IMG/VR virus record: IMGVR_UViG_3300045988_184127
Length of the DNA stretch: 64,000 bases
DNA from: a virus
Strand: one strand, 5' to 3'
Positions 27,380 through 53,045 of the stretch are shown piece by piece (within the stretch, counting starts at the first letter, position 1; every line of letters begins with the position of its first letter). Below the pieces are notes generated by a model, which was not told the DNA's origin, ran no database searches, and was given only the letters and a program-made list of their open reading frames with translations. The translations under genes were made by a program, and so were the position numbers.

Positions 27380-27571
27380 TCGTTCTATATAAACCGTCTG
27401 GCGGTATCTAACTGATTAACACTAAAAACAAAGAGCCGTGGTTGGAGCCTTTCCGAAACCGTCTTGCGGTAGGAGGTTTAAACCAATCCACAGCACCTTG
27501 TCTATTGTAGCATTTTGTCCTTGGAGAGGGACTTTAATAACTACTACTTTATAATACGAGGAGTATCTTGC
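27380..27571 (+). ncRNA. candidate omega-RNA region for IscB
   Basis: ~190-nt non-coding stretch immediately upstream of iscB containing imperfect repeats accgtctggcggta / accgtcttgcggta; omega-RNAs are known to lie 5-prime of iscB. Confidence 0.3.
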
Positions 27572-28924
27572 ATGAGCACTTGCGTTTGTGTTCTCAGCAA
27601 CAGTGGTGAACGCTTAATGCCTACCATCCGTCTTGGCAAGGTACGCCGACTCTTGAAAGACGGAAAAGCAAAAATCGTTAAGCATCATCCTTTTACTATT
27701 CAACTGCTGTATGACAGCAAAACGAACACACAACCCATCGAAATCTGCGAAGACGTGGGCTACAACTACATCGGCATCAGCGTAAAAAGCGAATCCCACG
27801 AATATGTGTCTGCCCAGTATGATACATTACAGGATGAGAAAGCCTGCCACGACAGTTGTCGTAAGTTGCGCCGAACCCGCAGAAATAGACTGCGCTACCG
27901 TAAACCGCGCTTCGATAACCGCAAGCGCGGCGAAGGTTGGCTTGCTCCTTCTTTGAGGCATAAGAAAGAACTCAATGTCAACGTTGTCAAGATGTATTGT
28001 GCAGTAATGCCCATTACTCATGCAACGGTTGAGGTTGGTTCTTTTGATACGATGCTTGTAAAAGCAATTCAGGAGGGAAAAGCCATTCCTGAGGGAGCAG
28101 ACTACCAGAAAGGTCCCCGCTACAACTTGGCAACTTCGCGTGAGGCAGTGTTCTACCGTGATAATTACACCTGCCAAGTTTGTGGACGCAAAGTTGCGGA
28201 TGGTGCCATTTTACATATGCACCACATGTTCTACTGGAAAGGAAGACACGGCGACAGCCTGAACGAACTTCTAACGGTATGCGAAAAGTGCCATACACCT
28301 GCCAATCACCAAAAAAGCGGTAAGCTTTATGGCTTCGGAGAAAATGTAAAGTTTGCCGACCTTTCCGGTGCGGCTTTTATGAACACCGTTAGGTGGCAAA
28401 TTGTCAATGAACTCTACGCTGCTTTTGGAAAAGATTTTGTCACCATCACTTATGGCGCAATGACAAAAGAAAAGCGCATTGCGCTTCAACTTGAGAAAAC
28501 CCACAGCAATGATGCGTATGCAATGGGCGAGTTTCATCCAAACTGCCGCTGTACGTTTGAACATTATGAAAAGGTAAGGCGTAATAATCGCATCCTTGAA
28601 AAGTTTTATGATTCTCGCTACATTGACATTCGTACAGGAGAAATAGCTACTGGAAAAGAACTCTTCAACGGTAGAATTAACCGTAACCACAAAAAGGATT
28701 CGGAAAATTTGCACAGATACCGTGGCAAGAGGACATACGCAGGGCATCGCGCTCTATTACGCAAAAAGGTAAACCTTAATCCGGGTGATTTAGTCTCTCT
28801 CAACGGAGAAGTTCTCGTTGTGCATAGCACTCATACCAATAAAAAGGGTGCTGTAAATGTAGAATTCAAAACACCCGGAAAAGCGGTCAAAAATCTGCAA
28901 GCCTTAAAAAACTTAAAATTGTAA
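27572..28924 (+). CDS. iscB: IscB OMEGA RNA-guided nuclease (PLMP-RuvC-bridge helix-HNH-RuvC-TID)
   Basis: N-terminal SGERLMPTIRLGKVRRLLKDGKAKIVKHHPFTIQL (PLMP domain), ICEDVGYNYIGISV (RuvC-I), RKLRRTRRNRLRYRKPRFDNRKRGEGWLAPS (Arg-rich bridge helix), CQVCG...LHMHHM...CEKCH (HNH), HSNDAYAMG (RuvC-III). Confidence 0.8.
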   Translation: MSTCVCVLSNSGERLMPTIRLGKVRRLLKDGKAKIVKHHPFTIQLLYDSKTNTQPIEICEDVGYNYIGISVKSESHEYVSAQYDTLQDEKACHDSCRKLRRTRRNRLRYRKPRFDNRKRGEGWLAPSLRHKKELNVNVVKMYCAVMPITHATVEVGSFDTMLVKAIQEGKAIPEGADYQKGPRYNLATSREAVFYRDNYTCQVCGRKVADGAILHMHHMFYWKGRHGDSLNELLTVCEKCHTPANHQKSGKLYGFGENVKFADLSGAAFMNTVRWQIVNELYAAFGKDFVTITYGAMTKEKRIALQLEKTHSNDAYAMGEFHPNCRCTFEHYEKVRRNNRILEKFYDSRYIDIRTGEIATGKELFNGRINRNHKKDSENLHRYRGKRTYAGHRALLRKKVNLNPGDLVSLNGEVLVVHSTHTNKKGAVNVEFKTPGKAVKNLQALKNLKL

Positions 28925-33275: not shown

Positions 33276-35471
33276 ATGATTACAACAAAGAAGATTGACC
33301 CACGGCCATATCAGCAGAAAGCTGCTGCGGCGATTCATAGAGAGTGGGATGCCGGGAATAAGAAAACGCTGGTTGTGATGCCGACCGGAACCGGCAAAAC
33401 TATTGTGTTTGCAAGCATCGTGAACGACCAGGTGGCAAAGGGTGAACACGTTTTGATTCTTGCGCACCGGGAAGAGCTTTTACAGCAGGCAAGCGACAAG
33501 CTCAAGATGGTGACGGGGCTAGAGACCGCGTTAGAGAAAGCGCAAAGCTCGGCGCTCGATTCCGATAAGATGGTCGTGGTTGCCAGTGTTCAGACTCTCT
33601 CTAAGCAGAATCGGTTAATGAAGTATCCGCGTGATTATTTCGGGACTATCATCATTGATGAAGCGCATCACACGGCAGCCAAAACTTACAAGGGAATTCT
33701 CGAGCATTTCATCGATGCCAAAGTGTTGGGCGTGACCGCAACACCCGACCGAAGCGACATGAAATCCCTATCTGATATCTTTGATAGTCTTGCATTTGAA
33801 TATAAGCTCCCGGATGCAATTCGGGAAGGATATCTCTGCAAAATTAACACGAAGACAATTCCGGTCGAGGTAGACATCAGCAAGGTTCATATCAATGCCG
33901 GTGATTTCAGTGCTCAGGACCTCGGCAATGTTCTTGACCTGTATCTGGACACGATTGCGGATGCCATTGTGCGAGAATGCCAGAACCGAAAGACTGTCAT
34001 CTTTACGCCTCTGGTACGAATCAGCAAAAGACTGTGTAATATCCTCAATAAGCGAAACTTCAAGACCGCAGAAGTCAACGGCGCGTCTGCGGACCGGAAG
34101 GACGTTCTGAAAGGGTTTGACAATGGCGAGTACAAGGCGCTGACGAACGCGATGCTCCTGACGGAAGGCTGGGATTGCCCGACCGTTGACTGTATCATCT
34201 GCTTGCGTCCTACCAAGAGCCGTAGCCTGTATGCGCAGATTGTGGGACGCGGAACACGCCTATGTGAAGGGAAAAAGAATCTTCTCGTGCTGGATTTCCT
34301 GTGGCTGACAAAGAAACATAGTCTTTGCCATCCTGCTGATATTTTCTGTGAAGACCCGGAAGTGGCACAAAAGACCACCGATATGCTGGCGGATGCGGCA
34401 CTCACCGGTTCGAATAGCCAGGAGAATTTCGGGAGTCCCGAATTGGGGCTGATTGAGGCAATCGAGGAAGCACAGACTGAGCTGGACGAGGAAAAGCGGA
34501 AAGCACTGTGTGAACTCGAAAAGCAGGATACGATTCAGCGCAAGCTCAAGGCACAGCGTCAAAAGCCGAGAGGATTGGTTGACCCGCTGCAGTACATTTT
34601 CAGCATCGAAGCGCCGGAACTCAACGATTATCAGCCGATGTTTGAGAGTGAGAGGCAGGAGCCTTCCGATGACATCATCGATAGTATTTCGTGCTACGGC
34701 GTAAAAGGGGATGCCATCAAATCTCAGGGCCTTGCCGCTGCAATTCTCAAACGACTCATTGCTCGCAGAGCCAGCGGAATGGCTACCCCGAAACAGATTC
34801 GGTGTCTTGAAAGTTTTGGGTTCGTCCATGTTGGGCGCTGGACATTGCGCTATGCAAGCAGCTTTTTGGACATCATCAGTTCTCATGACTGGAAACTTCC
34901 GAATGGGTTCGACGCATCCACGCTGGACCCGGAAAAGAATACGGCAGAAGACCTCGCCAAGCTGTATCCAGACTACAAGGAAGATGAGACGAAGAAAGCA
35001 CCGCGTGGGGATGCTTTCATCTGCTGCTACTACGATGCAAGCTACAATTTGGCTCGCAAGAAGGTCTGCAACAGTGAAAAAGAAATGTTGAATCTGTATT
35101 ATTCACTGTTCAATACTTGCGAAGCAAAGTACTTCTATTATACGAAGGAAGCTGATGCCTGGATGGCAGAAAAGCAGAATCTAATTGCCAGAAAGACTGG
35201 AACACCGATTCCTGCCACGCAGGCGACAAAGACAGTGCCAACGGCACCACCTCCCTTTGTCCCGGCAGCTCCCGCCAAGAGCCACGAATATTATTGCTGC
35301 CTTGCACGCTGGGACGGGTCTTATATCGGCTATGAAACTTACAAGAGTGAGCAGGCGGCACAGAATGCCCGAAAGCAGATTGCCCGGCGCGGTGAGACGG
35401 CAGTGTATGCCACGGTAGAGGAAGCCGAAGCGTGGGTCGAACGGCAAAAGGCAGCGAGAACCAGGAGGTAA
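33276..35471 (+). CDS. SF2 DEAD/DEAH-box-type helicase (ResIII-like N-terminal core) with long C-terminal extension
   Basis: RPYQQKAA...VVMPTGTGKT (motif I), IIIDEAHH (motif II), VLGVTATP (motif III), QIVGRGTR (motif VI); 731 aa. Confidence 0.75.
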   Translation: MITTKKIDPRPYQQKAAAAIHREWDAGNKKTLVVMPTGTGKTIVFASIVNDQVAKGEHVLILAHREELLQQASDKLKMVTGLETALEKAQSSALDSDKMVVVASVQTLSKQNRLMKYPRDYFGTIIIDEAHHTAAKTYKGILEHFIDAKVLGVTATPDRSDMKSLSDIFDSLAFEYKLPDAIREGYLCKINTKTIPVEVDISKVHINAGDFSAQDLGNVLDLYLDTIADAIVRECQNRKTVIFTPLVRISKRLCNILNKRNFKTAEVNGASADRKDVLKGFDNGEYKALTNAMLLTEGWDCPTVDCIICLRPTKSRSLYAQIVGRGTRLCEGKKNLLVLDFLWLTKKHSLCHPADIFCEDPEVAQKTTDMLADAALTGSNSQENFGSPELGLIEAIEEAQTELDEEKRKALCELEKQDTIQRKLKAQRQKPRGLVDPLQYIFSIEAPELNDYQPMFESERQEPSDDIIDSISCYGVKGDAIKSQGLAAAILKRLIARRASGMATPKQIRCLESFGFVHVGRWTLRYASSFLDIISSHDWKLPNGFDASTLDPEKNTAEDLAKLYPDYKEDETKKAPRGDAFICCYYDASYNLARKKVCNSEKEMLNLYYSLFNTCEAKYFYYTKEADAWMAEKQNLIARKTGTPIPATQATKTVPTAPPPFVPAAPAKSHEYYCCLARWDGSYIGYETYKSEQAAQNARKQIARRGETAVYATVEEAEAWVERQKAARTRR

Positions 35472-36051: not shown

Positions 36052-36504
36052 ATGATTCGATTCAGAAAAGATACCCCTCGCTACTGGTTTATGAGTAACT
36101 ATTATTCTTGCGAATTTGTGATGAATGGGATTCGTTACAAGAATGCCGAAGCAGCGTTTCAGAGCCACAAGGTTCCGCTGGAAGAGCGCAAACAATTTTC
36201 AGACATGCCTCCGGCAACGGCTAAGCATTTTGGCCGTCATGTGGCTTTCCCTGCCAACTGGGACGAAACCCGGGACGATGTAATGCGCCGCGTGGTGATG
36301 GCTAAATTCGAACAGAATAAAGACCTCAAGCAGCGTCTCCTCGAAACGGGAACGCAGCCAATCGAGGAAGATACCACCAGTTGGCACGATAACTACTGGG
36401 GAAACTGCCATTGCCCGAAATGCCGGAACATCCCGGGTCAGAACCGGCTTGGGATTATTCTGATGGAAACGAGGGACAAGCTAAAAAAACAAACGAGTAA
36501 ATAA
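36052..36504 (+). CDS. NADAR-domain protein (YbiA-like, DUF1768; ADP-ribose/NAD-processing hydrolase family)
   Basis: FSNYY..C.F..NG..Y...E..FQ..K......RK.F.......AK..GR......W.......M...V.AKF.QN..L...LL.TG...IEE....D.YWG pattern of NADAR domain. Confidence 0.7.
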   Translation: MIRFRKDTPRYWFMSNYYSCEFVMNGIRYKNAEAAFQSHKVPLEERKQFSDMPPATAKHFGRHVAFPANWDETRDDVMRRVVMAKFEQNKDLKQRLLETGTQPIEEDTTSWHDNYWGNCHCPKCRNIPGQNRLGIILMETRDKLKKQTSK

Positions 36505-40890: not shown

Positions 40891-41910
40891 GTGAAAAAGC
40901 CTATGACAAACGCAGAACTAAAAGCAATCGTCCAGCGTGAGGAATACGATTTCCTGCGCACCAACAAACACTTGGGGAGCAACATTTTATTCCTAACGCT
41001 TAGCGGCAGTCATGCCTACGGAACCAACGTCGAAGGCTCCGATATCGATATACGTGGCGTGGCAGGCTCACCCGAAATCTTAGGGTTTAACCACTTTGAG
41101 CAGGCCATTGACAACCGGACAGATACAGTCATCTACGCTGTGAACAAGTTTGTCAGCTTGCTTGCGCAGGGTAATCCCAACATTATCGAACTTCTTGGCA
41201 ATGACCCGGAGCTATATGTGAACATGACGCCGGAAGGCCAAATGCTGCTTGACAATAGGGAACTGTTCTTGACTCGGCGCATTGCCTACAGCTATGGCGG
41301 CTTTGCAAACGACCAGCTCAGACGTTTGCAGATGGGTTTGCTTCGCAACAGAGTCTCGCCGGAGGCGCTCAAAAACAAATTCGAGAAGAGGAGTCTGGAA
41401 CGGGCGATTACCGGATGGGGCAAGGATGACATTTTTGAAATCTCCATCAGTAAGGATACAGATGAAGAAGGCAAACATCCGCTCCTGATTTCTTGCAGCT
41501 TGAACGATTATCCAGTCACCTCTCTAAAGCCGCTGCTAAAGAGTCTGACTACGACCATCGACCAGTATGAGCAGCCGCAGCATCCGAAAGCGCAAAAGGA
41601 TGCTGCCCACATCAATAAACACGCAATGCACCTTGTAAGACTGTATTACACGGCATTTGACATTCTGGAACAAGGACGCATCATCACCTGTCGAGACAAG
41701 GAACGCGAGGAATTATTAGCCATCCGCAACGGCAAGTACATGTGCGAGGATGGGTCATACGCTCCCGAATTCTTTGAGTTTGTTGATGCGCTTGAAAAGA
41801 AATTTCAGGATGACGTGAGGAAAACCTCTCTTCCTGCTAAGCCTGACTTTGGAAAAATTGAGGAGCTTCTGGTGGAAATCAACAAGGAATATTTGCGGCG
41901 CGTCATGTAA
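40891..41910 (+). CDS. minimal nucleotidyltransferase (Pol-beta superfamily) domain protein
   Basis: LTLSGSHAYGTNVEGSDIDIRGV = GS..x(n)..[DE]hDh NTase signature; 339 aa; track start is GTG, alternative ATG at 40903. Confidence 0.6.
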   Translation: MKKPMTNAELKAIVQREEYDFLRTNKHLGSNILFLTLSGSHAYGTNVEGSDIDIRGVAGSPEILGFNHFEQAIDNRTDTVIYAVNKFVSLLAQGNPNIIELLGNDPELYVNMTPEGQMLLDNRELFLTRRIAYSYGGFANDQLRRLQMGLLRNRVSPEALKNKFEKRSLERAITGWGKDDIFEISISKDTDEEGKHPLLISCSLNDYPVTSLKPLLKSLTTTIDQYEQPQHPKAQKDAAHINKHAMHLVRLYYTAFDILEQGRIITCRDKEREELLAIRNGKYMCEDGSYAPEFFEFVDALEKKFQDDVRKTSLPAKPDFGKIEELLVEINKEYLRRVM

Positions 41911-41970
41911 TTGACATGCTATCAGCAACAAAATACTGCTCGTCCATTTGAATATGGGCAGCAATTTTTG

Positions 41971-41998
41971 TTGCAAAACCGTGCGAATTGAAGATAAT
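41971..41998 (+). promoter_or_regulatory. conserved-module promoter P9
   Basis: TTGCAA-16 nt (aaCCGTGCGAATTGaa)-GATAAT. Confidence 0.55.
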
Positions 41999-42003
41999 GA
42001 AAA

Positions 42004-42190
42004 TGAAGTTAACGGAAGCAAAGGTGATGCCGATGCAGTAAAAAATATAAATAGTGCAAGATTGAAATGTCACAAAGGACGGCCGACCTGTTACCGGCTA
42101 CCGGTTGAAATAGCAGTCCTTGAGGCTGCGTAAGATTATAAAGAACTCCTATTACTTTTTTGAGTAGTGGGGGTTCTTTTTTCCTCTAAA
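42004..42190 (+). ncRNA. candidate ~180-nt non-coding transcript from P9 upstream of cas operon, containing CRISPR-repeat-tail-like motifs and ending in intrinsic terminator
   Basis: Contains gcaaGATTGAAAT (~42056-42068), hairpin ACCGGctaCCGGT followed by TGAAAT (~42093-42111), GCGTAAGATTAT (~42128), and terminator cctattacttttttgagtagtggggg + ttcttttttcc (U-G wobble stem); the 61-aa track ORF here is not credible. Confidence 0.35.
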
Positions 42191-42338
42191 AACGAAAGCA
42201 TACGCCAAGGTCAATATCTGCAGCCTTAGAAACATGAAACTGTACATCGACTGCGGCTTGATGTTTAACGATATATCATAAAGTAATGCTATCTTTCTGC
42301 CGGAGGGGAAGTCAAGCAATTAAAATTATAATAAACAC

Positions 42339-42366
42339 TTGCCAACTTGTGCGATTCGCATACAAT
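42339..42366 (+). promoter_or_regulatory. conserved-module promoter P10 (drives cas5c-cas8c-cas7c)
   Basis: TTGCCA-16 nt (acTTGTGCGATTCGca)-TACAAT, ~70 nt upstream of cas5c ATG. Confidence 0.55.
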
Positions 42367-42434
42367 CAAGGATAGAGACAGATAAAAGCAAATAACAACC
42401 ATCCGGCAACATAGATGACAAGTGGAGACGTAAA

Positions 42435-43121
42435 ATGATTGAGCAGAAAGACAGTGAAATTTTGGAGCTCGCGGGGTTTGCAGACCGGAACAGAAAGGCC
42501 AGGGAGGTTCATTCAGAGCCTATTTTCGTACAGGTGAACAGCAAGCTGGCAGCCTACACGATACCAGGAATGCGTTCGGAAGGAACGACCTATGATGTTC
42601 CGACTTACTCGGCACTGAAAGGTGCAATGGATTCCATCTACAAACATGTCGGTATGGAAGCGATTCCGACGGCGGTGTACATTCACTCTCCTATAAAAAA
42701 GACACGTATCCTGCTGCGAAATATTGAGAACATCGAAGGAATGCGCTCCCGCGAATGCTTAACGGATGTTTGCTACACGGTCGTTGTACGAATCGTAAGA
42801 ATGGATAACATGGCTTTAGAAAGCGACCTCACAGTGCAGTACAGGAATTTCTTAGAGTATGCTTCCGACAGCTGTGGGATGGGATATCCGTATCTTGGCG
42901 TGATGGAAACACCCATGTATTTCCATCCTGTAACGGAAGCTGAAATCCTTCCGACGCTGCCCATCACATCTGATTTGTGCAACATGCCTCTGACGCCGGA
43001 TTATACGAACAAATTTGAACCGGATTTGGTTTGCAGGCATCTTCGCATCGAGAATGGTGTCATCGATTTTACGAAGGGGGAGTATTTTCGCTGCTATGGA
43101 TATTCTGAATGCGCTGGTTAA
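42435..43121 (+). CDS. cas5c: Cas5c (Cas5d) type I-C Cascade subunit / pre-crRNA endoribonuclease
   Basis: FVQVNSKLAAYTIPGMRSEGTTYDVPTYSALKGAMDSIY matches Cas5d N-terminal signature (..yAlF..P......Y.vPTysALKG..esIY); 228 aa; overlaps cas8c start. Confidence 0.8.
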   Translation: MIEQKDSEILELAGFADRNRKAREVHSEPIFVQVNSKLAAYTIPGMRSEGTTYDVPTYSALKGAMDSIYKHVGMEAIPTAVYIHSPIKKTRILLRNIENIEGMRSRECLTDVCYTVVVRIVRMDNMALESDLTVQYRNFLEYASDSCGMGYPYLGVMETPMYFHPVTEAEILPTLPITSDLCNMPLTPDYTNKFEPDLVCRHLRIENGVIDFTKGEYFRCYGYSECAG

Positions 43122-45042
43122 GCACTATGATGCGATGGCAGCAGCTGGAAATGCAACGCCTTTCGGCTGGACACACAAGTTTGCTCAATATGCCGTCGAA
43201 CTAAACGATGACGGAGAAATCGATAGGATTTTCGCTCTCGGTGATTTATCCGATAAAAAGAACAAAGGCGAGGAATTCAAGATGCCAACACGCAGGCCAC
43301 GGTCTGGCAAGCTGCCGATTCCGTATGTGTTCTGTGATGATGCGGAACATCTTCTCGGCAAAGTCGGTGAAGCGAGCAATCTTGTTCGATACACTATGAT
43401 GCGCGACGCAGTCTTTATGCTGCGTGACCTGTTGGGACATTCTAAAGCCTTAGATGTCGTCTACAAGTTCTACGAAACGTGGGACCCAGAAAAGGCGCTT
43501 GACAATAAATGTGTCAGCGACGTAATGGAGGCGAAAGGCCAGGAAAAGAAAACCTTTATCCTGTTCTACAATGGCGTTCCAGTTTTTGATGATGAGACAT
43601 TTCGCAAAAGCTATGCGGCGATTGTCAATAAATATGGGGAAATGCCGATTGATACACTCAAGGGCGGTGAAATTGCTCTGTTGCCGGAACCTATCAAGAT
43701 TCGAAGCATGATAAGCGGCAATATCGGGTTTAAGGCTCGCTTGTTTCGAGCCATCACGGCATGGGGAAACAAAAAGAATGGCCCTGTCACAAACACTCTT
43801 TTGTCCAACAACAAAGCAAACACCGAGTATTTCGGACGTCAGCAGGGCAACGCCATCCCCATCACAATGCAAGATGAACATAAGATTTACGAAGCGGCTA
43901 CAGATTTGCTCGGCTCCAAACATCGGTTTCCGGTTCCGGCCACTTCACAGTCTCTTTATTCAAAGAATCAAATTATCTGGTCGGATGATATGCCAACAAA
44001 GCTGGAAGACGCGGTCATTGACCTATGCTGTTGCCGCAGTGATAAAGCTAAAACTATCTCTCAGGCAAATGAATCAGGTTCTGAAACCACTATCAGAATC
44101 CTTGAAAAAACAAAACTCTATCAGGGACGAATCACGGTTCTTTCGGACATTGAAAAGAACTTAGTCGTCAACGTCTGGAATCTTGATATGAATAATAAGG
44201 GATGTTCTGCATCCAGCTTTACGCAGATGACGCTTGACGAGCTGCTTGGAAACTTTGCCAAGCATTACACTGACATGGAAATTGACCGAAGCCAGACTTG
44301 CCGAGATGCGGATGGAACCAGCCGAGATTTTGCAAGAGCCATCAACATCTACAACTCACTTTTCGCCAAAAACAGTGATGGAAGCACGAGTTCTTTCAAC
44401 AACGCTCTTTGGAAACAACTGAGTATCAGCATTTATTCCGGAACAAAGTATCCGGAGCAAGTCCTTTCCCTGGCACTGCTTCGGTCCTGCCGTTTGCTTC
44501 AGCAAAATAAGAAAGGCAAAGAAAATCGCATCACGGCGTCTTTGGCCGGTATCACAAAAGCGTTCTTAATTCGCAATTACGGAGAGAATATGACGATGGG
44601 ACTCAACTCAAACAACACCAGCCCTGCTTATATCACAGGACGAATCTTCGCACATATGGAAAGTGCGCAGAGAAAGATTGACCCCAACAACCAAACCACT
44701 TACGCTAAACGGTTCTTTGAGCGAGTTATGATGAACCCGGCCAAAACCATGCCGGAACTTCACAAGAGTTTCCTTCTTTTGAAGAACAAGGCTAAAGCAA
44801 ATGGCATGAGAGGTCTTTATAATTCCAGCGACAAGAAAATTATGGCTCTTATCGATATGCTGGATGGCAACTATCCCGACCATCTATCCGAAAAGCAAAA
44901 AGGTGAATATCTCGTCGGATACTATCAGCAGCGAAGCGCAAACATCAAGGATGCCGAGGAGAAGAAAAACCGGAAAGCCGCCAAAATTGAAACTAATAAT
45001 ACGGATACTGCGACAACCGTTGCAACACAAAAGGAGAAGTAA
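43096..45042 (+). CDS. cas8c: Cas8c (Csd1) type I-C Cascade large subunit
   Basis: N-terminus MDILNALVKHYDAMAAAG...GWTHKF...VELNDDGEI...MPTRRPRSGKLPIPYVFCDDAEHLLG matches Csd1 family pattern (M.L.aL..yYdrl...vP.R..RTsg..p.flcD...Y.LG); ~648 aa; position between cas5c and cas7c. Confidence 0.8.
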   Translation: MDILNALVKHYDAMAAAGNATPFGWTHKFAQYAVELNDDGEIDRIFALGDLSDKKNKGEEFKMPTRRPRSGKLPIPYVFCDDAEHLLGKVGEASNLVRYTMMRDAVFMLRDLLGHSKALDVVYKFYETWDPEKALDNKCVSDVMEAKGQEKKTFILFYNGVPVFDDETFRKSYAAIVNKYGEMPIDTLKGGEIALLPEPIKIRSMISGNIGFKARLFRAITAWGNKKNGPVTNTLLSNNKANTEYFGRQQGNAIPITMQDEHKIYEAATDLLGSKHRFPVPATSQSLYSKNQIIWSDDMPTKLEDAVIDLCCCRSDKAKTISQANESGSETTIRILEKTKLYQGRITVLSDIEKNLVVNVWNLDMNNKGCSASSFTQMTLDELLGNFAKHYTDMEIDRSQTCRDADGTSRDFARAINIYNSLFAKNSDGSTSSFNNALWKQLSISIYSGTKYPEQVLSLALLRSCRLLQQNKKGKENRITASLAGITKAFLIRNYGENMTMGLNSNNTSPAYITGRIFAHMESAQRKIDPNNQTTYAKRFFERVMMNPAKTMPELHKSFLLLKNKAKANGMRGLYNSSDKKIMALIDMLDGNYPDHLSEKQKGEYLVGYYQQRSANIKDAEEKKNRKAAKIETNNTDTATTVATQKEK

Positions 45043-45044
45043 CA

Positions 45045-46007
45045 ATGTCTGAACTCGTTAAGAATCCTATCACCATTGTTCTAGCGTTTGATGCGCAGAA
45101 CTGTAATCCCAATGGGGACCCCGACAACGACAACAACCCGCGTCAGTTTGAGGATGGAATCGGGTACATGTCGTCCGAAAGCATCAAATATAAGATTCGC
45201 AGCTACATCCGTGACAAGGTCTTGTTTGACGGTCTGGAAAAGAACAGCCATGCACTATATTGCAGCCCCGATACTTTTTCCATTGAGCGCAGCGTTAAAG
45301 AGTGCCTGGAGCCTATCATCGGCAAAAAAACCAAAGGCATCCCCGATGACCAGCAGCTGGAGGCTTATAAGGAGCTGTGCCGGTACTACTATGATACTCG
45401 CATGTTTGGGCTTGTGAATACGAGTTATTCCAACTGCAGCCTTCTCAGCCGCATCAAGGGTGCCTGCCAGGTATCTATGCCGATGTCCTATGACCCTATC
45501 GAAATCATCCCGATGACGATTACTCGCTGCTGCGTTGCTTCCGATGCTGAACGCAAAGGCGAAGATAAAGGCGCCAAGAAGGGCGTCAGTATCGACGAAA
45601 GCGACGATGGAGCCGAAAAGAAGACGAAAGACCGCATGATAGGCCGTCGAAGCATTATCAGATATGGGCTGTATCACATGAGCATTCAAATCAACAGTGC
45701 AATGGCACAGCGTAACGGTGTTACGATGGATGACGTTAATTTGTTGATTGATGCGCTGCAGCATATGTTCGAGGAAGATATGAGCTCCAGCAGAGCCCTA
45801 ACGCTGCGTAAGTTGTTTGTCGTTGAACACACCAAACCGATGGGAAATGCTTATCGGGACACCATTGAGCGGGCACTGGCGGCTCGACTGAAGCAACCTA
45901 ATGATGCACCTACATCTTATGAGGATTACGAGGTGACTTATCACCGCGAAATGCTGCCTGATGAGGTCAAGGTGACTGAGTATAATTATAACAGTCAAAG
46001 CGTTTGA
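45045..46007 (+). CDS. cas7c: Cas7c (Csd2) type I-C Cascade backbone subunit
   Basis: ITIVLAFDAQNCNPNGDPDNDNNPRQFEDGIGYMSSESIKYKIRSYIRD = hallmark Csd2/Cas7 N-terminal motif (nsNPNGDP...N.PR.d..tG.g..s..s.KrkiR); 320 aa. Confidence 0.85.
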   Translation: MSELVKNPITIVLAFDAQNCNPNGDPDNDNNPRQFEDGIGYMSSESIKYKIRSYIRDKVLFDGLEKNSHALYCSPDTFSIERSVKECLEPIIGKKTKGIPDDQQLEAYKELCRYYYDTRMFGLVNTSYSNCSLLSRIKGACQVSMPMSYDPIEIIPMTITRCCVASDAERKGEDKGAKKGVSIDESDDGAEKKTKDRMIGRRSIIRYGLYHMSIQINSAMAQRNGVTMDDVNLLIDALQHMFEEDMSSSRALTLRKLFVVEHTKPMGNAYRDTIERALAARLKQPNDAPTSYEDYEVTYHREMLPDEVKVTEYNYNSQSV

Positions 46008-46110
46008 CAAAAACTAATAATTGCTGGTCAACAAAACTGTATAAGATTGAAAACACAATAGTCTGCCTCTTGTTAATACGTTGCAAGTGAGAACCTGCGG
46101 GACTACAAAA

Positions 46111-46140
46111 GTGATGCACTATGCCACATATGATTGAAAC
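46111..46140 (+). repeat. degenerate type I-C CRISPR repeat-like sequence ending in canonical GATTGAAAC
   Basis: GTGATGCACTATGCCACATATGATTGAAAC; compare I-C consensus GTCGCACTCTTCATGGGTGCGTGGATTGAAAT. Confidence 0.35.
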
Positions 46141-46220
46141 GATATTTTGCTATGGTGCGGAAATGCAGCGGCTGCAGGTAACACAACTGCCGTAAGAAAG
46201 GCTACAAAGCGGCCCATGAG

Positions 46221-46251
46221 GTCGCGTAAGATTATGCGCCCATCTGCAAAC
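46221..46251 (+). repeat. degenerate type I-C CRISPR repeat-like sequence
   Basis: GTCGCGTAAGATTATGCGCCCATCTGCAAAC; shares GTCGCG...GCGC...AAAC frame with I-C repeats (GTCGCGCCCCGCACGGGCGCGTGGATTGAAAC) and the 12-mer GCGTAAGATTAT with 42128. Confidence 0.35.
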
Positions 46252-46304
46252 GCGGGTGGACGTTCTTTTTTTGCCAAAAATAAAAATAAAACGTGATAAA
46301 AACC

Positions 46305-46332: not shown

Positions 46333-46415
46333 AACCCTAATAAGATAAGAATTATGCCCTGACGGCATCTGAATTGGATGCTGCCGGGGCATTTTTGTTG
46401 TTAGGAGATATAGCT

Positions 46416-49136
46416 ATGACGCTGAACGACTTGTCAAGCGAACAACAGGAATTCGTACATTTGGCATTGTCGGGAAAAAACGTATTGTGTGACGCCTGCA
46501 TTGGCAGCGGAAAGACATCGACCATCAACGTGCTCTGTGATGCGTACCCTCCAGAACGGCGTATCCTGTACTTGACCTATAACCGATTACTCAAACTTGA
46601 CGCCAAAGACAAAATCAAAAATCATAATGTCTTGGTCCAGAACTATCACGGATTTGCAAGCCTGCTGCTGAACAAAAAGGGAATCCGAAATTGCGGGCAG
46701 GGTGAACAGCTCGCTATGGTATTGGAAAAGAAAATTCCGATTCCGCCGATTGATACTCTTATCATTGACGAGTATCAGGATATCAATGACGAGATTGCGG
46801 AACTACTCAAATATATCCGTTCTCAGAATCCGAGCCTTCAAATCGTCGCAGTGGGCGATATGAAGCAGAAAATCTACGATGATACAGCGTTGGATGTCTG
46901 GACATTCATGCAGGATTTCCTCGGCCGCCATGAACAAGTGATTTTCACAAAGTGTTTCCGTATTTCCCATGACTTGGCAGAACGGCTTGGCAATATCTGG
47001 GGGAAGACCATCGACGGCGTAAATAGCTCCTGTATCGTGGAACAGATGTCGGTCGATGAAGTGATAGAGTTCCTGAATAAGCAGAACCCCAAAAATGTCC
47101 TTTGCCTGGGTGCTCGAATTGGAGCCATGACGAAGGTGCTCAACGACTTGGAAAATCGACCGGGGAACCTCTATGACAAGCATCATGTCTATGCAAGTAT
47201 CGCAGACAATGATGGGAATAAGGCAGTAGCACCCTCCTCGGATGTTGGTATCTTCACGACTTTTGACGGCAGCAAAGGTATGGAGCGGCCTATCTGCGTT
47301 GTGTTTGATTTCACGGAAGAATACTGGTCGTCTCGCACAAGCAAACCGATGGCACGATATGAGATTCTTCGAAATTTGTTTTGTGTCGCAGCAAGCCGTG
47401 GAAAGCAGCGAATCATTTTCGTAAACTCAGACCATCCGTTGAGCGATAAATCTCTGATGACCCCAACTGAAACTCTTCGCGGATTTCCGCATCCGTTCGC
47501 ATTCTCTGAGATGTTTGACCATAAATTCATCGAGGATGTAGATGCCTGCTATAAGCTGTTGGAAGTCGCACCGATTGAACGTAATGATACCACGTCCATT
47601 GATATCCAGACGGCAGATGCAATGATTGATTTGTCTCCCTGCATCAGCATCTACATGCAGGCAGGATTCTTTAATTCCTACGATATAGATGACGCACTTG
47701 CGTATTACATGGACCTGCATAAAGACATGCAGTATTTGAAAATCAAGAAGGGTGCAACGGTCGAGGATAAGGTTCTACTGCTCACAGCACTCGAAACGAA
47801 TCAGTGCAGGTATGTAAAACAGGTCAAGCCTCCTTTTGTGAACGCAAAAGCCAAAATGTCGCTCAGTATGCGGCTTGGAACCGTGTTCACTCCCGATGAA
47901 TATGTTCAGGCACGTGGCGATATCGACATTCATACTAAGGACCATAAAGTAATTTATACCTCGGGCCTTGCGGATGTCGTAAAGAATAATACCGTCTACT
48001 GCATCAAGTTTATCAGCAGCCTGGCACATAAGCATTTTCTGCAGTGTGCGTGTTCCATGATGGCATTGGGGTTGCCGTATGGCGTTGTCTGGAACGTCAA
48101 AAGTAACCTGATGTACAGCGTAAAAATCAAGGATATAGACGCTCTGATTGACGCAATTACCAAGTGCATTACGAAACGGGTTTATGATAGCGCAGATGAC
48201 TACACCTGCAGGAAAGGTTTTGTACAGGATACCGCGTCGATTATCGACCGATGGACTGACGACGGATATGCGGAAGAGCCCACCACTATCACTTCCGGCG
48301 ACGGTATTGCCATCATCAAGCAAGGAAGCCGCTATTTTGTGATGGACGGAGCACGTCGAAACACCCTGAACGATAATTTCGGGATGGGCTTTGCCGATGT
48401 AAAAGATGCTTGCCTTGCTTATGCAAAGAGTTGTGAACTCCAGAAAATCGTGGACCATGATTCTCCTTATTCCGAAGTCGAATTCTGGCTCGACCAGAAC
48501 AAGGCGTTTGAGGAATACATGACGCAAGTAAGCCATGAAATCGAACAGCACAAGGAAGGACCGTATGCAAAGTATAAGTCTTTCGCTGCTCCCGCTGTCC
48601 GAAAGATGCTGGCCGAAAAGGGACTGACCATCATGTTCCCGGAAAAGGTCCTCATCAAGGTCTGGAAGATGCGCCGTGTCGAAGATGCCATGTATCAGAA
48701 AATTGAAGAAGCAAAGAAGCAGAACAGCTCCAATGTACCGCTTGATGAGGCGTTCTTTGACTCTGAACTGGTGGATTCCGTTGAGGGAAGCATCGAAAGC
48801 GCCAAGGCAAAATCCAAGCCCAAAAAGGAATCCGCATTACCGTTTTCCAAGTACTGCGCAGATGAGAAGAAGAGCTATCGTGTCGTGAAAAGCGATGAAC
48901 TCTCAAAGCCCAACCAGCCCCGTTATGTTGTGGTCGAGACCGCTACTGATAAGGTCCTGGACAATGCTAACGGATATGGCTACCTTTCCTATCAGGCTGC
49001 CTGGAAAGGGTATTCGTACAAGAGCAAGCATCATCTGGACGGCACGAAGAAACCGATAAGTAAGAGTGCAAAAGAGCAGGCAAAGAAAAAGGCGGCTTTC
49101 TTTTCGACTGACTCAGAGCAGCTCAGCTTTGGCTGA
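46416..49136 (+). CDS. UvrD/Rep-like SF1 helicase core (N-terminal ~370 aa) fused to ~540-aa uncharacterised C-terminal region
   Basis: LNDLSSEQQEFV...VLCDACIGSGKTSTI (Walker A / motif I), LIIDEYQDIND (motif II DExQD), FTTFDGSKGMERPICVV (motif V/VI-like); start at MTLNDLS with AGGAGA RBS; C-terminal part has weak GDIDIH...K nuclease-like stretch (unverified). Confidence 0.7.
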   Translation: MTLNDLSSEQQEFVHLALSGKNVLCDACIGSGKTSTINVLCDAYPPERRILYLTYNRLLKLDAKDKIKNHNVLVQNYHGFASLLLNKKGIRNCGQGEQLAMVLEKKIPIPPIDTLIIDEYQDINDEIAELLKYIRSQNPSLQIVAVGDMKQKIYDDTALDVWTFMQDFLGRHEQVIFTKCFRISHDLAERLGNIWGKTIDGVNSSCIVEQMSVDEVIEFLNKQNPKNVLCLGARIGAMTKVLNDLENRPGNLYDKHHVYASIADNDGNKAVAPSSDVGIFTTFDGSKGMERPICVVFDFTEEYWSSRTSKPMARYEILRNLFCVAASRGKQRIIFVNSDHPLSDKSLMTPTETLRGFPHPFAFSEMFDHKFIEDVDACYKLLEVAPIERNDTTSIDIQTADAMIDLSPCISIYMQAGFFNSYDIDDALAYYMDLHKDMQYLKIKKGATVEDKVLLLTALETNQCRYVKQVKPPFVNAKAKMSLSMRLGTVFTPDEYVQARGDIDIHTKDHKVIYTSGLADVVKNNTVYCIKFISSLAHKHFLQCACSMMALGLPYGVVWNVKSNLMYSVKIKDIDALIDAITKCITKRVYDSADDYTCRKGFVQDTASIIDRWTDDGYAEEPTTITSGDGIAIIKQGSRYFVMDGARRNTLNDNFGMGFADVKDACLAYAKSCELQKIVDHDSPYSEVEFWLDQNKAFEEYMTQVSHEIEQHKEGPYAKYKSFAAPAVRKMLAEKGLTIMFPEKVLIKVWKMRRVEDAMYQKIEEAKKQNSSNVPLDEAFFDSELVDSVEGSIESAKAKSKPKKESALPFSKYCADEKKSYRVVKSDELSKPNQPRYVVVETATDKVLDNANGYGYLSYQAAWKGYSYKSKHHLDGTKKPISKSAKEQAKKKAAFFSTDSEQLSFG

Positions 49137-49975: not shown

Positions 49976-50114
49976 GTCGATACTTCCGGCTCGATGCGCG
50001 GAGAACCTATCAATGCACTGAAAACGGCCATGATTAACACCATCCAGTATATCAATGACGACAACTATATCGGCATCCTCGATGAGTTGCTGGATATTCT
50101 TAACGATAAATAAT
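49976..50114 (+). pseudogene. duplicated internal fragment of vWA gene (MIDAS region) - gene remnant
   Basis: ~113 nt ~88% identical to 23270-23385; in-frame translation FVVDTSGSMRGEPINALKTAMINTIQYINDDNYIGI then novel tail and stop; no start codon or RBS. Confidence 0.55.
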
Positions 50115-50117
50115 TGA

Positions 50118-50160
50118 TTTTTACACCTCCGATGTTACGGCATCGGAGGTTTTGTTTTTT
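50118..50160 (+). terminator. rho-independent terminator
   Basis: cctccgatgttacggcatcggagg + ttttgtttttt. Confidence 0.65.
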
Positions 50161-50170
50161 GGAGGATACT

Positions 50171-51991
50171 ATGAGCAAGGGAATGCGTACAGAGGATGAG
50201 GTTCGTGACAGCGCCAAGCTGGTTCTTGGCTTCGATAAGACCGAAGATGGAGTGCAACAGGGAACAGGGCAAATCACCACCTTCAACCAGCTGGGATTCC
50301 GTGGATGTAATGATAAACCGGATGGCTGGTATCTGCCGGATGACGCCAGCAAACCCGCCATCATTCTGGAGACGAAATCAGAAGCAGAAGGCGTTTCCAA
50401 GGAAAAACATGTCAAGGAACTGTTCAAGAACATCGATGTAGTTGCCAAGAAATACTCCAAGACCATCGGTATTCTTTATAGCGGCAGTGCAATCCGCGTG
50501 TTCAAGAGCAAAATCGAGCTGTCTGATGCGTCCAAGCGCTTAGAGGATAAGAACTACTATATCCGTCTGTGTACGAGCCAGAAACTCGACAGCAACTACA
50601 CCTTCGAAATCACGCAGAAAATCAACAACAGTCTGCATTTCAAGTTCGGCATGACGGACTTGCAGGACCGGATGATTTTCACGGCTTGCGCCCTTGTCGC
50701 CCAGCGTTACAACCCTCAGAACGGTCTTCAAAAACTGAAAGACATGGATTACAGCACCTTCCATAACTGGATTTACAGTGCCCTGTCTAAGGCTCTGGAA
50801 GATGATAAGAAGCAGAATAGCAAGCTGGATGTGCTCTTGGAGGAGTATGCCTCTGTCCGTATGTCTATTACGGAGAATCAGGAAGCTATCAACGATTTCA
50901 TCGACAATGTCTGCCAGATTGCCGACCTCGTCAATTCCGATAACTGGAATGGCGAAGATGTCATGGCTATTTTCTTCAACGAGTTTAACCGCTACCGTGG
51001 TAAGGCTCAGGCAGGACAGGTGTTTACCCCTGACCATATTGCATCCTTTATGTACCGACTCATTGATGTGAATATGAATGACCGGGTTCTGGATGCCACC
51101 TGTGGTTCCGGCACCTTCCTCGTAAAGAGCATGTGCAATATGATTCGTGAGGCTGGCGGCAGCAACACCAGCAAGGCAAAGCAAATCAAGTCTGAGCAGT
51201 TGTTTGGTATCGAGATGTACCGGAAAGTCTACGCTCTGGCATGCGCAAACATGATGATTCACAAGGATGGAAAGACCAACCTTGTGCAGATGGATGCCAC
51301 TTCGGCTGAGGCGACTGAATGGATTCGGAAACAGAAAATCACCAAGGTCCTGATGAACCCGCCCTACGAGAGACGGTATGGTTGTGCAACAATCGTTGGC
51401 AATGTGTTGGACAGCGTCCCTGCAGGTACAAAGTGTGCCCTCATTCTCCCGGATAAGAAGATGGAGAAGGAATCCAAGCTGAAAGCCTTGCTGGAACGGC
51501 ATACTCTGACTACTATCATCAAGCTGCCTGAGAACCTTTTCTTCGGTCTGGGCGTTACTACTTCTATCTTCATCTTCGAGACTGGCAAGCCTCAGAATGG
51601 GCGCAACATCAAGGGTTACTATGTAGCTGATGACGGTCTGGAGACAGTCAAGAACAAGGGTCGCCAGGATGTACATGATAAGTGGCCTGCGCTGGAAGAT
51701 TACTGGGTCAAGGCAATTCAGGATGACAACGATGACCGCTACAACACTCGCCAGCTTATCAATCCGGCTGAACACCTGTCCTATCAGATGCCGGAGAAGC
51801 CTTTTGAATTGTACGAGGAAGATTTCATCAAAACGGTGATGGACTACGAGATGTACAAGCGTGGCATCAACGCCAAGGAGTTCGGGGACAAACTGCTGCA
51901 GAAGGTGCTCTACGGTTCGACTGTTACCGGCACGGAGGAAGGCACAAACATTCTGGTAGAGAAGGGAGAGGACAATAATGGGGAAGATTGA
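50171..51991 (+). CDS. hsdM: N6-adenine DNA methyltransferase, Type I HsdM-like (gamma-class)
   Basis: VLDATCGSGTFLV (motif I, AdoMet binding) and VLMNPPYE (motif IV NPPY); translationally coupled to downstream S-like gene; 606 aa. Confidence 0.7.
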   Translation: MSKGMRTEDEVRDSAKLVLGFDKTEDGVQQGTGQITTFNQLGFRGCNDKPDGWYLPDDASKPAIILETKSEAEGVSKEKHVKELFKNIDVVAKKYSKTIGILYSGSAIRVFKSKIELSDASKRLEDKNYYIRLCTSQKLDSNYTFEITQKINNSLHFKFGMTDLQDRMIFTACALVAQRYNPQNGLQKLKDMDYSTFHNWIYSALSKALEDDKKQNSKLDVLLEEYASVRMSITENQEAINDFIDNVCQIADLVNSDNWNGEDVMAIFFNEFNRYRGKAQAGQVFTPDHIASFMYRLIDVNMNDRVLDATCGSGTFLVKSMCNMIREAGGSNTSKAKQIKSEQLFGIEMYRKVYALACANMMIHKDGKTNLVQMDATSAEATEWIRKQKITKVLMNPPYERRYGCATIVGNVLDSVPAGTKCALILPDKKMEKESKLKALLERHTLTTIIKLPENLFFGLGVTTSIFIFETGKPQNGRNIKGYYVADDGLETVKNKGRQDVHDKWPALEDYWVKAIQDDNDDRYNTRQLINPAEHLSYQMPEKPFELYEEDFIKTVMDYEMYKRGINAKEFGDKLLQKVLYGSTVTGTEEGTNILVEKGEDNNGED

Positions 51992-53045
51992 TACTTCCGG
52001 GTGGAAGGAGTTCCGGGTAGGGGATTTGTTCGATATTCATCCAACCAAGGCATACAAATGTACGAACGCTGAATTACTGGACGGAGGAGGCACCAATGTT
52101 GTTGTAAACTCTGCGTATGATAATGGAATTGGTGGAACGAGTACATTTAGCCCTACAGAAAACGGTAACATGATTACTTTCAGTGATACCGTGGACGCAA
52201 ACACCATCTTCTATCAGAAAAGTCCGTTTGTTGGGTATCCTCATGTACAGGGATTATACCCTGTTGGCAAGTATCAAAATGCTTGGACACAGGAAAGTCT
52301 ACAGTATTTTGTGACAGCTTTTCGGGAACGCGCGTTAGCAGTTGGATTTGATTACGGAAACAAGTTTCGGAGGGATATTGCTGCAAATCTGTTTGTAAAA
52401 CTCCCCTCCACCCCTGACGGTGACCCCGACTGGGCTTATATGGAATCCTACATGGCAGACCTTGAAGCTAAAGTCGCCGAGTCGCTGACTCTGCTGCAGG
52501 CTGCGAAGGATGCGGAAAAGAAAAAGGTGGATACGAGGGAGTGGGGAGAGTTCCGGGTGGGGGAGTTGTTTGATATCAAGCGCCCTGCAGCGAGAAGCGA
52601 AAAGAAATATTGCGAGGGCGAAATCAATTATGTATCGTCAGGAGCATTTAACAATGGCGTTGCTAACAAATTGATGCCATTGCCTAATGAATTACTTGAC
52701 CGGGGTGGATGTATAACGGTTAGTCCATTGGACGGTTCGTCTTTTTATCAAGAAGAGGATTTCCTCGGGAGAGGTGGCTCAGGAGCATCAATTTCAATTT
52801 TGTATAACAGCCACTTAAACAGAAATAACGCTCTTTTCATCTGTTCAGTTATTCGTAGTTCTGCAAACGGATTTGGCTATACAGATTTGTTAAATGGCGA
52901 GAATCTAAAATCTCTCACAATTAAGCTTCCCATGGACAAGACCGGTCAGCCTGATTGGGGGTATATGGAGGAGTATATGAGGAAGGTAGAAGAACGGGTG
53001 AAGGCGACGATGGGGAAATTGGAGAAGAAATGTTATGTTTCTTGA
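51978..53045 (+). CDS. hsdS: Type I restriction-modification specificity (HsdS-like) subunit with two target-recognition halves
   Basis: Duplicated conserved blocks GWKEFRVGDLFDI and EWGEFRVGELFDIK plus DPDWAYMESYMADLE / QPDWGYMEEYMRKVEE coiled-coil spacers; ATG overlaps hsdM stop. Confidence 0.65.
   Translation: MGKIDTSGWKEFRVGDLFDIHPTKAYKCTNAELLDGGGTNVVVNSAYDNGIGGTSTFSPTENGNMITFSDTVDANTIFYQKSPFVGYPHVQGLYPVGKYQNAWTQESLQYFVTAFRERALAVGFDYGNKFRRDIAANLFVKLPSTPDGDPDWAYMESYMADLEAKVAESLTLLQAAKDAEKKKVDTREWGEFRVGELFDIKRPAARSEKKYCEGEINYVSSGAFNNGVANKLMPLPNELLDRGGCITVSPLDGSSFYQEEDFLGRGGSGASISILYNSHLNRNNALFICSVIRSSANGFGYTDLLNGENLKSLTIKLPMDKTGQPDWGYMEEYMRKVEERVKATMGKLEKKCYVS

Follow-up and report, generated by a model that had tools for sequence, protein, structure and literature searches.

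A CRISPR-derived interval, probably an eroded mini-array, behind the cas genes of a Cas3-less type I-C locus in a phage-like element of the human gut

Introduction

What is the short stretch of DNA that follows the last cas gene of a type I-C locus in a phage-like element, and does it still guide anything? The locus lies in a window of 64 kb, the whole stretch of DNA analysed here, from IMG/VR record IMGVR_UViG_3300045988_184127, and all coordinates without a locus name are positions in this window. It encodes a type I-C Cascade (cas5c-cas8c-cas7c). Downstream of cas7c, a sequence-only reading had pointed out repeat-like strings at 46111–46140 and 46221–46251, 80 nucleotides (nt) apart, and both are present. 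Comparison with related loci indicates beyond reasonable doubt that this interval derives from CRISPR (short palindromic repeats that are clustered and regularly interspaced). On balance it appears to be what erosion has left of a mini-array that shares the transcript of the cas operon, with its last repeat and its terminator conserved. Related loci are designated below by L-numbers (L009, L014, L136, L146 etc.), and clades are named by the identity of their Cas7 to that of the window.

Results

Repeat sequences on both sides of the cas operon

The repeat of this lineage was read from real arrays in the relatives L009 and L146. It is 33 nt long, GTAGCAGCCnnnGAGGCTGCGTAAGATTGAAAT, with a 6-bp stem, a 5-nt loop and an 11-nt tag, the family layout being a covarying 6-bp stem followed by GTAAGATTGAAAT. 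We built a covariance model on 22 repeats taken from related arrays and ran it unfiltered over the whole window on both strands (128 kb). Among these repeats 93% of the stem cells were paired and all 6 pairs showed double changes, a degree of covariation that none of 500 shuffles reached. The five best matches in the window (Table 1) were all on the plus strand and all in two short intergenic regions flanking the cas operon, one holding the interval after cas7c and the other a twin unit upstream of cas5c (42058–42139). Because the best matches cluster in this way, the repeat signal exceeds chance. No regular CRISPR array or repeat family was detected anywhere in the window, this site included, in agreement with the earlier remark that a 32+34 period is absent. 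Rfam gave no match at the site, and a permissive threshold also gave nothing relevant there.

Canonical repeats from 11 loci share the organisation of the family, having a GC-rich stem of 6–7 bp and an 11-nt 3′ tag ending in ATTGAAA(C/T). The family stem sequence is unlike that of every canonical I-C repeat recovered from gut metagenome loci, the tag GATTGAAA(C/T) alone being in common. In the window, the stem is intact only at 46206–46235 and 42110–42139, where the tag is shortened to GATTAT, and the tag is intact only where the stem has been lost.

Could this be a chance resemblance with no relation to CRISPR? The first of the repeats described earlier (46108–46140) is not significant when taken alone, GATTGAAA also occurs at three unrelated plus-strand sites, and an ungapped match to 22 of the 33 consensus positions is found once elsewhere, on the minus strand. 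Against this stand the grouping of the five top matches beside the cas genes on one strand, a 10-mer common to the two units only, and the orthologous position in relatives, which holds a real array and a homologous terminator. The core that had been reported as shared with 42128 was confirmed: with both strands of the whole window considered, GCGTAAGATT is found at 42128 and 46224 and nowhere else, and this connection to the upstream unit is an important one. Chance resemblance keeps hardly any probability; it is refuted by the L009 array, the alignment of orthologues and the model matches.

The orthologous position in related loci

In L009, whose Cas7 is 79% identical to that of the window, an array of 7 repeats and 6 spacers lies directly after cas7. 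Behind it come a terminator homologous to that of the window and the promoter and helicase gene that the window also has. The interval thus sits where this relative has its array, in keeping with the position that had been proposed. In L014 and L138–140 (Cas7 90% identical) a clean one-spacer unit occupies the position; its order is a tag-only pseudo-repeat (..ACGTAAGATTGAAAT), a 35-nt spacer unrelated to the downstream segment of the window, a stem-loop repeat ending in GTAAGATTAT and a homologous terminator. The L009 array and the 90%-clade unit bear out the earlier suggestion of a decayed array. The expectation that orthologous loci would carry such motifs held for these loci but not for the 68% clade, which has no array between cas7 and the helicase gene and has cas3 and arrays upstream. 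In L175, an open reading frame (ORF) starting ...PLMPTTRCRHVRHLL comes directly after cas7, behind a long non-coding stretch.

The downstream unit itself is held nearly unchanged by more than 20 metagenome and IMG/VR contigs, with two point variants and one deletion within its body. L181 lacks 46141–46186 (a 46-nt deletion) and is of doubtful quality, since its cas8 and cas7 are frameshifted and homopolymer errors are present.

Anatomy and conservation of the downstream interval

The sequences described earlier as two degenerate I-C-like repeats are indeed CRISPR-derived, but the covariance model places their frames differently. The first keeps its tag (GATTGAAAC) without a credible stem, and MAFFT pairs it with the handle of the L014 unit. 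The second had been read in a canonical GTCGCG...GCGC...AAAC frame, a resemblance that proved accidental and straddles the terminator: it joins the last 15 nt of the 46206–46235 repeat to the 5′ arm and loop of the terminator (GCGCCCATCTGCAAAC), the AAAC being the terminator loop. The terminal repeat proper has the arms GCGGCC/GGTCGC followed by GTAAGATT-AT, 3 bases short of the full tag, and its hairpin is also predicted. It had further been stated that no more copies follow, yet a third remnant lies at 46027–46053 and scraps fill the 80-nt gap. The string AATTGCTG before this remnant would be a leader end by comparison with L009 and L146. Within the gap, the 10-nt ATTTTGCTAT (46144–46153) is identical to the leader end before the first L009 repeat, both stem arms are fused without a loop at 46164–46176 (TGCAGCGGCTGCA), and a shortened repeat tail, CTGCCGTAAGAAAGGC, occupies 46187–46202; we read these three pieces as scraps of repeats.

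A canonical I-C array would show at least 3 near-identical repeats with a period of about 65–68 nt; here one full repeat stands beside tag-only remnants, and the intervals measure 54 and 65 nt as opposed to the normal 34–36. Erosion is indicated by the uneven spacing and the scraps of repeats, and by the fact that a single stem-loop is intact and that tags survive where stems do not. The only ORFs over the interval are on the minus strand (63 and 80 aa), and they cannot be conserved in L014 because the sequence differs there.

Comparison with L014 points to the last repeat and the terminator as the parts that look constrained: 3 of 27 nt differ in the former and 3 of 36 in the latter, about 35% being expected for each. 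Synonymous divergence of the cas genes between the window and the 90% clade is approximately 0.33–0.37 per site. No other terminator and no consensus promoter were found between cas7 and the terminator at 46240, from which the interval is taken to form the 3′ end of the cas operon RNA.

We therefore favour a history in which a short CRISPR array of an I-C-like Cascade, in a locus without adaptation genes and with cas3 lost, would have eroded to what now follows cas7: two tag-only remnants, scraps, one stem-loop repeat with a shortened tag, and the operon terminator. Cas5d requires a hairpin and a 3′ flank. By analogy with the known Cas5d mechanism, Cas5c would bind and cut the last stem-loop, and the conservation of the last repeat and terminator fits a role that persists, the repeat being bound and cut by Cas5c and the terminator ending the operon. 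At most, the interval would yield one oversized RNA resembling a CRISPR RNA (crRNA), made of the tag ATGAUUGAAAC, 65 nt and a hairpin; this RNA is more likely a relic than a working guide, and it is doubtful, if far from negligible, that the 65-nt body yields a loaded guide.

The twin unit upstream of cas5c

The unit at 42058–42139 is better preserved (Table 1). Its handle and the first 14 nt of its spacer show 0 differences in 25 positions from the 90% clade (P ~2e-5), and the distal nt 15–41 differ at 8 of 27, which is about neutral. Conservation of position together with conservation of the 5′ part of the spacer is thus seen for the upstream unit, the downstream one being conserved in position only. 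The pattern equals the published one of CreR/CreA guides, with their short match next to the protospacer adjacent motif (PAM). The upstream stem has undergone a compensatory A-T to G-C change in L139. Both clades have a TATAAAT box some 7 nt ahead of the tag, so that the upstream RNA may start at the tag without processing. Judged by these features, the unit looks like a hard-wired CreR/CreA-style guide gene, for which the target would take the form TTC/TTT + GTCACAAAGGACGG.

This upstream unit is the more probable working guide of the Cas3-less Cascade: it is bounded by a promoter-like site and a terminator of its own, its tag falls where transcription probably begins, and the 14 PAM-proximal nt of its spacer are invariant. 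Such a guide would let Cascade bind a target without cutting it. The unit is of more interest than the downstream interval, and together with the Cas3-less Cascade it is what deserves experimental work.

The promoter-like site before the unit belongs to a motif, TTGC-N6-GTGCGAAT-N5-6-A(T/C)AAT, of which the window holds 8 copies (19149, 19316, 21201, 25406, 29771, 41971, 42339 and 46305), all on the plus strand and before genes, the upstream unit, the cas operon and the helicase gene among others. The copy before the helicase gene is conserved in the 79%, 90% and 68% clades. The motif may represent an element-specific class of promoter or operator.

Table 1 Features of the cas locus and matches of the repeat covariance model in the window
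Feature	Position	Strand	Evidence or remark
Promoter-like site TTGCAA-16-GATAAT	41971–41998	+	Upstream of the guide unit; the element's own promoter class
Model match	42051–42068	+	13.5 bits; E 0.41
First pseudo-repeat of upstream unit	42058–42068	+	11-nt 5′ handle AAGATTGAAAT only; model match 42051–42068, 13.5 bits
Spacer-like segment, 41 nt	42069–42109	+	nt 1–14 identical in 90% clade; nt 15–41 differ at 8/27
Last pseudo-repeat of upstream unit	42110–42139	+	Full stem-loop GCAGTC/GGCTGC + GTAAGATTAT, tag 3 nt short; 29.2 bits
Model match	42110–42142	+	29.2 bits; E 2.4e-5
Intrinsic terminator of upstream unit	42140–42185	+	18-bp stem + T run
Promoter-like site of cas operon, TTGCCA-16-TACAAT	42339–42366	+	Same promoter class
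cas5c	42435–43121	+	Pfam Cas_Cas5d; PADLOC Cas5c 4e-18; PDB Cas5d structure matches
cas8c (648 aa from ATG of public gene calls)	43096–45042	+	Pfam Cas_Csd1 7e-68; PADLOC Cas8c
cas7c	45045–46007	+	Pfam Cas_Cas7 6e-53; PADLOC
Degenerate first repeat	46027–46053	+	Tag ATAAGATTGAAAA retained, stem lost; preceded by leader-end-like AATTGCTG; 17.8 bits
Model match	46027–46053	+	17.8 bits; E 0.03
Degenerate repeat (repeat 1 of the sequence-only reading)	46108–46140	+	Tag ATGATTGAAAC retained; only a 3-bp stem possible
Model match	46108–46140	+	13.1 bits; E 0.52
Interval of 65 nt with repeat scraps	46141–46205	+	
Terminal repeat	46206–46235	+	Stem 46209–46214 with 46220–46225, loop CATGA, then GTAAGATTAT; 21.4 bits
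Model match	46206–46235	+	21.4 bits; E 0.003
Intrinsic terminator of cas5-8-7 + mini-array transcript	46236–46272	+	Stem 46240–46259, T run; homologous to L009 post-array terminator

Searches for targets

Whole-length and seed searches for targets covered the window, the related loci, 59 other I-C loci, GenBank phages and IMG/VR. In these sets none of the spacer-like segments had a target, all matches being to the units themselves or at chance level. The promoters of the cas genes, the helicase gene and the units had no PAM-flanked partial match. The same held for nearby promoters in the IMG/VR contigs of the family; TTY plus the 14-nt seed had 25 matches in IMG/VR, 0 of them in family contigs. 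It had been proposed that the intervening segment might partially match a nearby promoter, as in CreTA; neither the window nor the related loci nor the IMG/VR contigs of the family contained a PAM-flanked match of that kind. Nor was there a site in the flanking intergenic DNA that could be a target in a toxin promoter, and no toxin gene was evident.

Several candidates were rejected. The best whole-spacer match of the upstream unit within the window (34364, 23/35) has no T-rich PAM and a mismatch at seed position 2, and its score was equalled by 7 of 200 shuffled spacers. At 36934 the PAM-proximal 10 nt of the downstream segment find a match, yet its flank is GCC and it lies inside a coding region, about 0.1 such matches being expected by chance. 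A match of 11/14 over the start codon of the helicase gene (46405) has no PAM and is no better than chance matches, and some 17-mer matches in IMG/VR belong to a conserved coding motif (TKDG..., chaperonin-like by our reading).

Relic or working guide

These results bear on the alternative that the downstream interval is itself a working guide of the CreA/CreR type, in which the tag at 46130–46140, the 65-nt body and the 46206–46235 hairpin would make up a single long guide that, once loaded into the Cas3-less Cascade, would repress a promoter through partial complementarity. A first repeat reduced to its tag and a last one reduced to its stem correspond to the published CreR/CreA layout (bioRxiv 10.1101/2023.03.10.532045). 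That layout recurs systematically in the family, in the upstream unit, in L014 and in the first and last repeats of the mini-arrays of L146. Further points in favour are the conservation of the terminal repeat, the purifying selection that acts on Cascade even though cas3 is missing, and the near-invariance of the unit across many samples. Contrary evidence comes from the segment itself. It had no PAM-proximal match of ≥10 nt at promoters in the window, the best seed matches being 11/14 and scattered in coding DNA, and no target in family loci, canonical I-C loci, GenBank phages or IMG/VR. Its body is about twice the length of a normal spacer and composed of repeat scraps, its tag has T at position 2 where the family has A, and neither a hairpin nor a correctly spaced −10 box is present to make a 5′ end. 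Furthermore, the segment is not conserved in the sister clade, where an unrelated 35-nt spacer is found, and it contains the two point variants and the deletion mentioned above. We regard such a working guide as a tentative alternative. Of the earlier CreA-like interpretation, the tag-first, stem-last layout stands, at its best in the upstream unit, and the PAM-flanked promoter match does not.

The preferred reading as an eroded mini-array has weak points of its own. Its steps of transcription, Cas5c cutting and loading are all inferred, and the conservation tests assume an equal divergence time for intergenic DNA and cas genes, which a mosaic locus may violate. The block 41911–46270 is nearly invariant in more than 20 contigs, so that the eroded part is not visibly decaying faster than the genes, and the sister clade, with its clean unit, shows that a well-formed guide gene can exist at this position. 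Lengthened spacers are tolerated by type I complexes, as reported for the Cascade of Escherichia coli, which makes a 65-nt body compatible with function. Finally, the upstream unit likewise had no target in the window, the related loci, the 59 I-C loci, GenBank phages or IMG/VR.

Mini-arrays of a sibling element

In the sibling element L146 (IMGVR_UViG_3300045988_183547), at least 6 tandem mini-arrays with spacers of 26–36 nt occupy 4300–7560, upstream of a genuine cas3 with HD, helicase and Cas3 C-terminal domains. Each has its own leader and a conserved terminal (terminator) module; the repeats are heterogeneous with stems preserved by compensatory change, and the first is often tag only and the last stem only. 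One spacer (7311–7343) matches the region just upstream of L136 cas3 (7–33) at 27 of 27 positions with a TTT flank, and L146's own copy (7687–7707) departs from the spacer by an indel of 2 nt and by mismatches towards the PAM end. This was the only match of a spacer to related viruses, none being found for the segments of the window. The match could reflect targeting of siblings or regulation of cas3, and at least some guides of the family appear to be aimed at siblings or at cas3 control regions.

Might the interval then be a live minimal array, with spacers renewed in trans by the I-C adaptation machinery of the host and interference against rival phages exerted with host Cas3? Spacer content at this position differs wholly between clades, with 6 spacers in L009, and the L146 spacer shows a sibling match; the tag GATTGAAA(C/T) is common to canonical I-C repeats of gut bacteria, and phage arrays are typically compact and without adaptation genes (PMC7162821). 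What the window offers is a single intact repeat, intervals of 54 and 65 nt where 34–36 would be usual, no protospacer match in the sets searched and no detectable cas3, and the use of host proteins is an assumption. We consider a live array improbable.

The Cascade genes and their exchange between elements

In the window, cas5c, cas8c and cas7c are present, and cas3, cas4, cas1 and cas2 were not found, so that the I-C gene set is incomplete. A tblastn search of the window with three Cas3 proteins of the family did not find cas3, and nothing in the window resembles the cas4-cas1-cas2 regions of five canonical I-C loci; for L177, one of the five, Pfam verified that Cas4, Cas1 and Cas2 are encoded. 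A 731-aa helicase at 33276–35471 was considered as Cas3 and rejected as a ResIII/restriction-type helicase. The window Cas7 belongs to a distinct clade, database identities running from 47 to 100% and then falling to about 31% (canonical I-C Cas7). Members of 648 aa in the 'Cas7 cluster' were discarded, since they are actually Cas8c and a clustering artefact.

The 90% clade retains a 53-aa remnant of the Cas3 C-terminus, 58–60% identical to family Cas3, between the upstream guide unit and cas5 (L139 259–417; L014 and L162 2092–2250). From this stub it follows that cas3 was lost by deletion in the window lineage and that the upstream unit is the leftover of arrays such as siblings have in front of cas3. 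When the window is compared with L014, both clades being Cas3-less, the ratio of nonsynonymous to synonymous substitutions (dN/dS) of cas5, cas8 and cas7 is 0.09–0.11 at a dS of about 0.45. The Cascade genes are still under purifying selection despite the loss of cas3.

Among more than 20 contigs, the block 41911–46270, comprising both units and cas5-8-7, differs by 0–0.3%, as against 3–11% for the flanking RlaP and helicase genes, and in L162 the cas genes have diverged by 6–12% with an identical downstream unit. By this pattern, the locus is a mosaic in which recombination exchanges the guide-cas5-8-7-guide module. Estimates of selection from substitution rates within the near-identical population were rejected because of too few events and the mosaic locus.

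Carrier element and neighbouring genes

The carrier is a very common human-gut phage-like element with a stripped-down type I-C Cascade (cas5c-cas8c-cas7c). An identical Cas7 protein is recorded on at least 1000 public contigs, near-identical copies of the locus lie on IMG/VR contigs of 47–160 kb, and the window yields PHROG matches to a tail protein and a DNA polymerase. Megablast of the locus against GenBank phages gave no match, a Cas8c search in species genomes gave nothing, and the repeat 14-mer had single chance matches only in species genomes. Literature searches turned up no publication on this particular gut element.

Downstream of cas7c follow, in order, a UvrD-like helicase (46416–49136), a gene of no recognised family and a methyltransferase with a specificity subunit (Pfam, PADLOC). 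Between the helicase promoter and its start codon, a hairpin with a T run at 46350–46400 (plus strand) resembles a promoter-proximal terminator or attenuator; it is kept with compensatory changes in the 68% clade (ATTGTACCCTGATGGCAAAGTGGGCTGTCAGGGTACTTTTT; L136 ~6070–6115). About 400 nt past cas7, several otherwise identical contigs (L011, L148, L151 and others) carry a polymorphic insertion of an IS605/TnpB-type ORF (KVHKGYKFRLEPTEEQ...), located between the helicase promoter leader and the helicase gene.

Defence or counter-defence genes are likely to surround the Cascade. The ResIII helicase at 33276–35471 resembles type IV/type I restriction helicases, and a NADAR domain protein (36052–36504), an RlaP-type nucleotidyltransferase (40891–41910) and the N6-methyltransferase with specificity subunit (50114–53045) were also found. 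Elsewhere on the plus strand, 23809–23878 matches the hepatitis delta virus (HDV)-like ribozyme family 'HDV-F-prausnitzii' above the gathering score (58 bits, E 4e-8; the sole Rfam match in the window), a name from which gut Clostridia such as Faecalibacterium might at best be guessed as hosts, 27515–28924 is an IscB-like 469-aa ORF with RRXRR and HNH domains, and 12852–12916 holds short direct repeats of 11-nt period resembling ACTTGCTACGA.

Discussion

Comparison with known systems

Like CreA of CreTA, CreR and the mini-arrays (Shmakov et al.), the window has two repeat-like sequences beside type I cas genes, with the handle first and the stem-loop last, clearly so in the upstream and L014 units and with a mutated tag, ATGATTGAAAC, in the downstream one. 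Position is conserved in related loci, and the upstream spacer is conserved only in its PAM-proximal ~14 nt. The differences are that no PAM-flanked match to a cas or toxin promoter occurred in the searched sets and no toxin was evident, that the downstream body is 65 nt long and made of repeat scraps, and that the carrier's Cascade lacks Cas3, so that partial complementarity would be unneeded to avoid self-cleavage. Since the PAM-proximal promoter match of ~10–15 nt that marks CreA and CreR was missing, we do not file the interval under either; an adjacent small toxin gene with a guide-targeted promoter, as in CreTA, was likewise missing. Mini-arrays next to cas genes have been reported in 7% of I-C loci, and those without conserved spacers or targets are described as probably degraded repeats, with short partial matches that are hard to find computationally (bioRxiv 10.1101/2023.03.10.532045; PMC10120712).

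The phage I-C variant of Al-Shayeb et al. 2020 (PMC7162821) is alike in being phage-borne, in having only Cas5d-like, Cas8c and Cas7 proteins without adaptation genes or Cas3, in its adjacent helicase gene, the helicase there taking the place of Cas3, and in its very small array; repression without cleavage has been proposed for it (PMC7162821). In our element, by contrast, the UvrD-like helicase gene lies behind a terminator and has its own promoter, and the 68% clade has this helicase alongside a true Cas3, so that it is no plain replacement for Cas3.

Virus-borne mini-arrays acting in conflicts between related viruses are reportedly a well-established class. The present family resembles them in its several tiny arrays, in the virus-like carrier without an adaptation module and in one sibling spacer matching a sibling element, the difference being that the segments of the window have no such match. 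Type IV-A systems (nuclease-free, helicase-associated, plasmid-borne, with spacers in trans; bioRxiv 10.1101/2023.06.23.546257) likewise pair a Cascade-like effector with a neighbouring helicase gene on a mobile element without Cas3 or adaptation genes, where binding or silencing is likely. The proteins of the window are nevertheless of I-C type (Cas5c, Cas8c, Cas7c) and not Csf, and the helicase is UvrD-like and not DinG.

A solitary repeat on a mobile element also recalls the RNA anti-CRISPRs Racr (PMC10651486) and Cracr (bioRxiv 10.1101/2024.10.29.618823), and the interval might then be a decoy for, or a mis-programmer of, the host I-C Cascade. The published examples are near-solitary repeat units on mobile elements with their own terminator, as here; the tag resembles host-type I-C repeats, and an AcrVA2-like gene adjoins cas3 of a related element. 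Racr and Cracr act on host Cas proteins and usually lack cognate cas genes, whereas here the element's own cognate Cascade genes, which are under selection, are directly adjacent. In addition, none of the canonical I-C repeats recovered has this stem, and the 59 loci gave no match to I-C cas promoters. An anti-CRISPR role is very improbable.

Rather unlikely, though of wider consequence, is the idea that either end of the operon has a hard-wired single-guide gene by which the element programs its Cas3-less Cascade, itself under strong purifying selection. Both genes would then run from a promoter of their own, through a tag where transcription starts, a spacer and a stem-loop, to a terminator; the RNA-guided complex would repress a gene of the host or of a rival phage through a seed of ~14 nt, and the downstream unit would be a lengthened second guide and not a relic.

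Biological meaning

Read as an eroded mini-array, the interval alone is an ordinary vestige, since repeat-like leftovers and mini-arrays are often seen beside type I cas genes and have been catalogued before. What makes it useful is that it led to a separate clade of I-C systems on mobile elements, with heterogeneous covarying repeats, multiple mini-arrays that each run from promoter to terminator, a Cascade under purifying selection despite the deletion of cas3, and a compact natural 'single-guide' layout for a type I effector. If a target of the upstream unit were found, the locus would be a natural phage-encoded CRISPR-interference device in an element present on at least 1000 public contigs, and its layout, with the tag at the start and the stem at the end, would provide a ready design for minimal type I guide cassettes.

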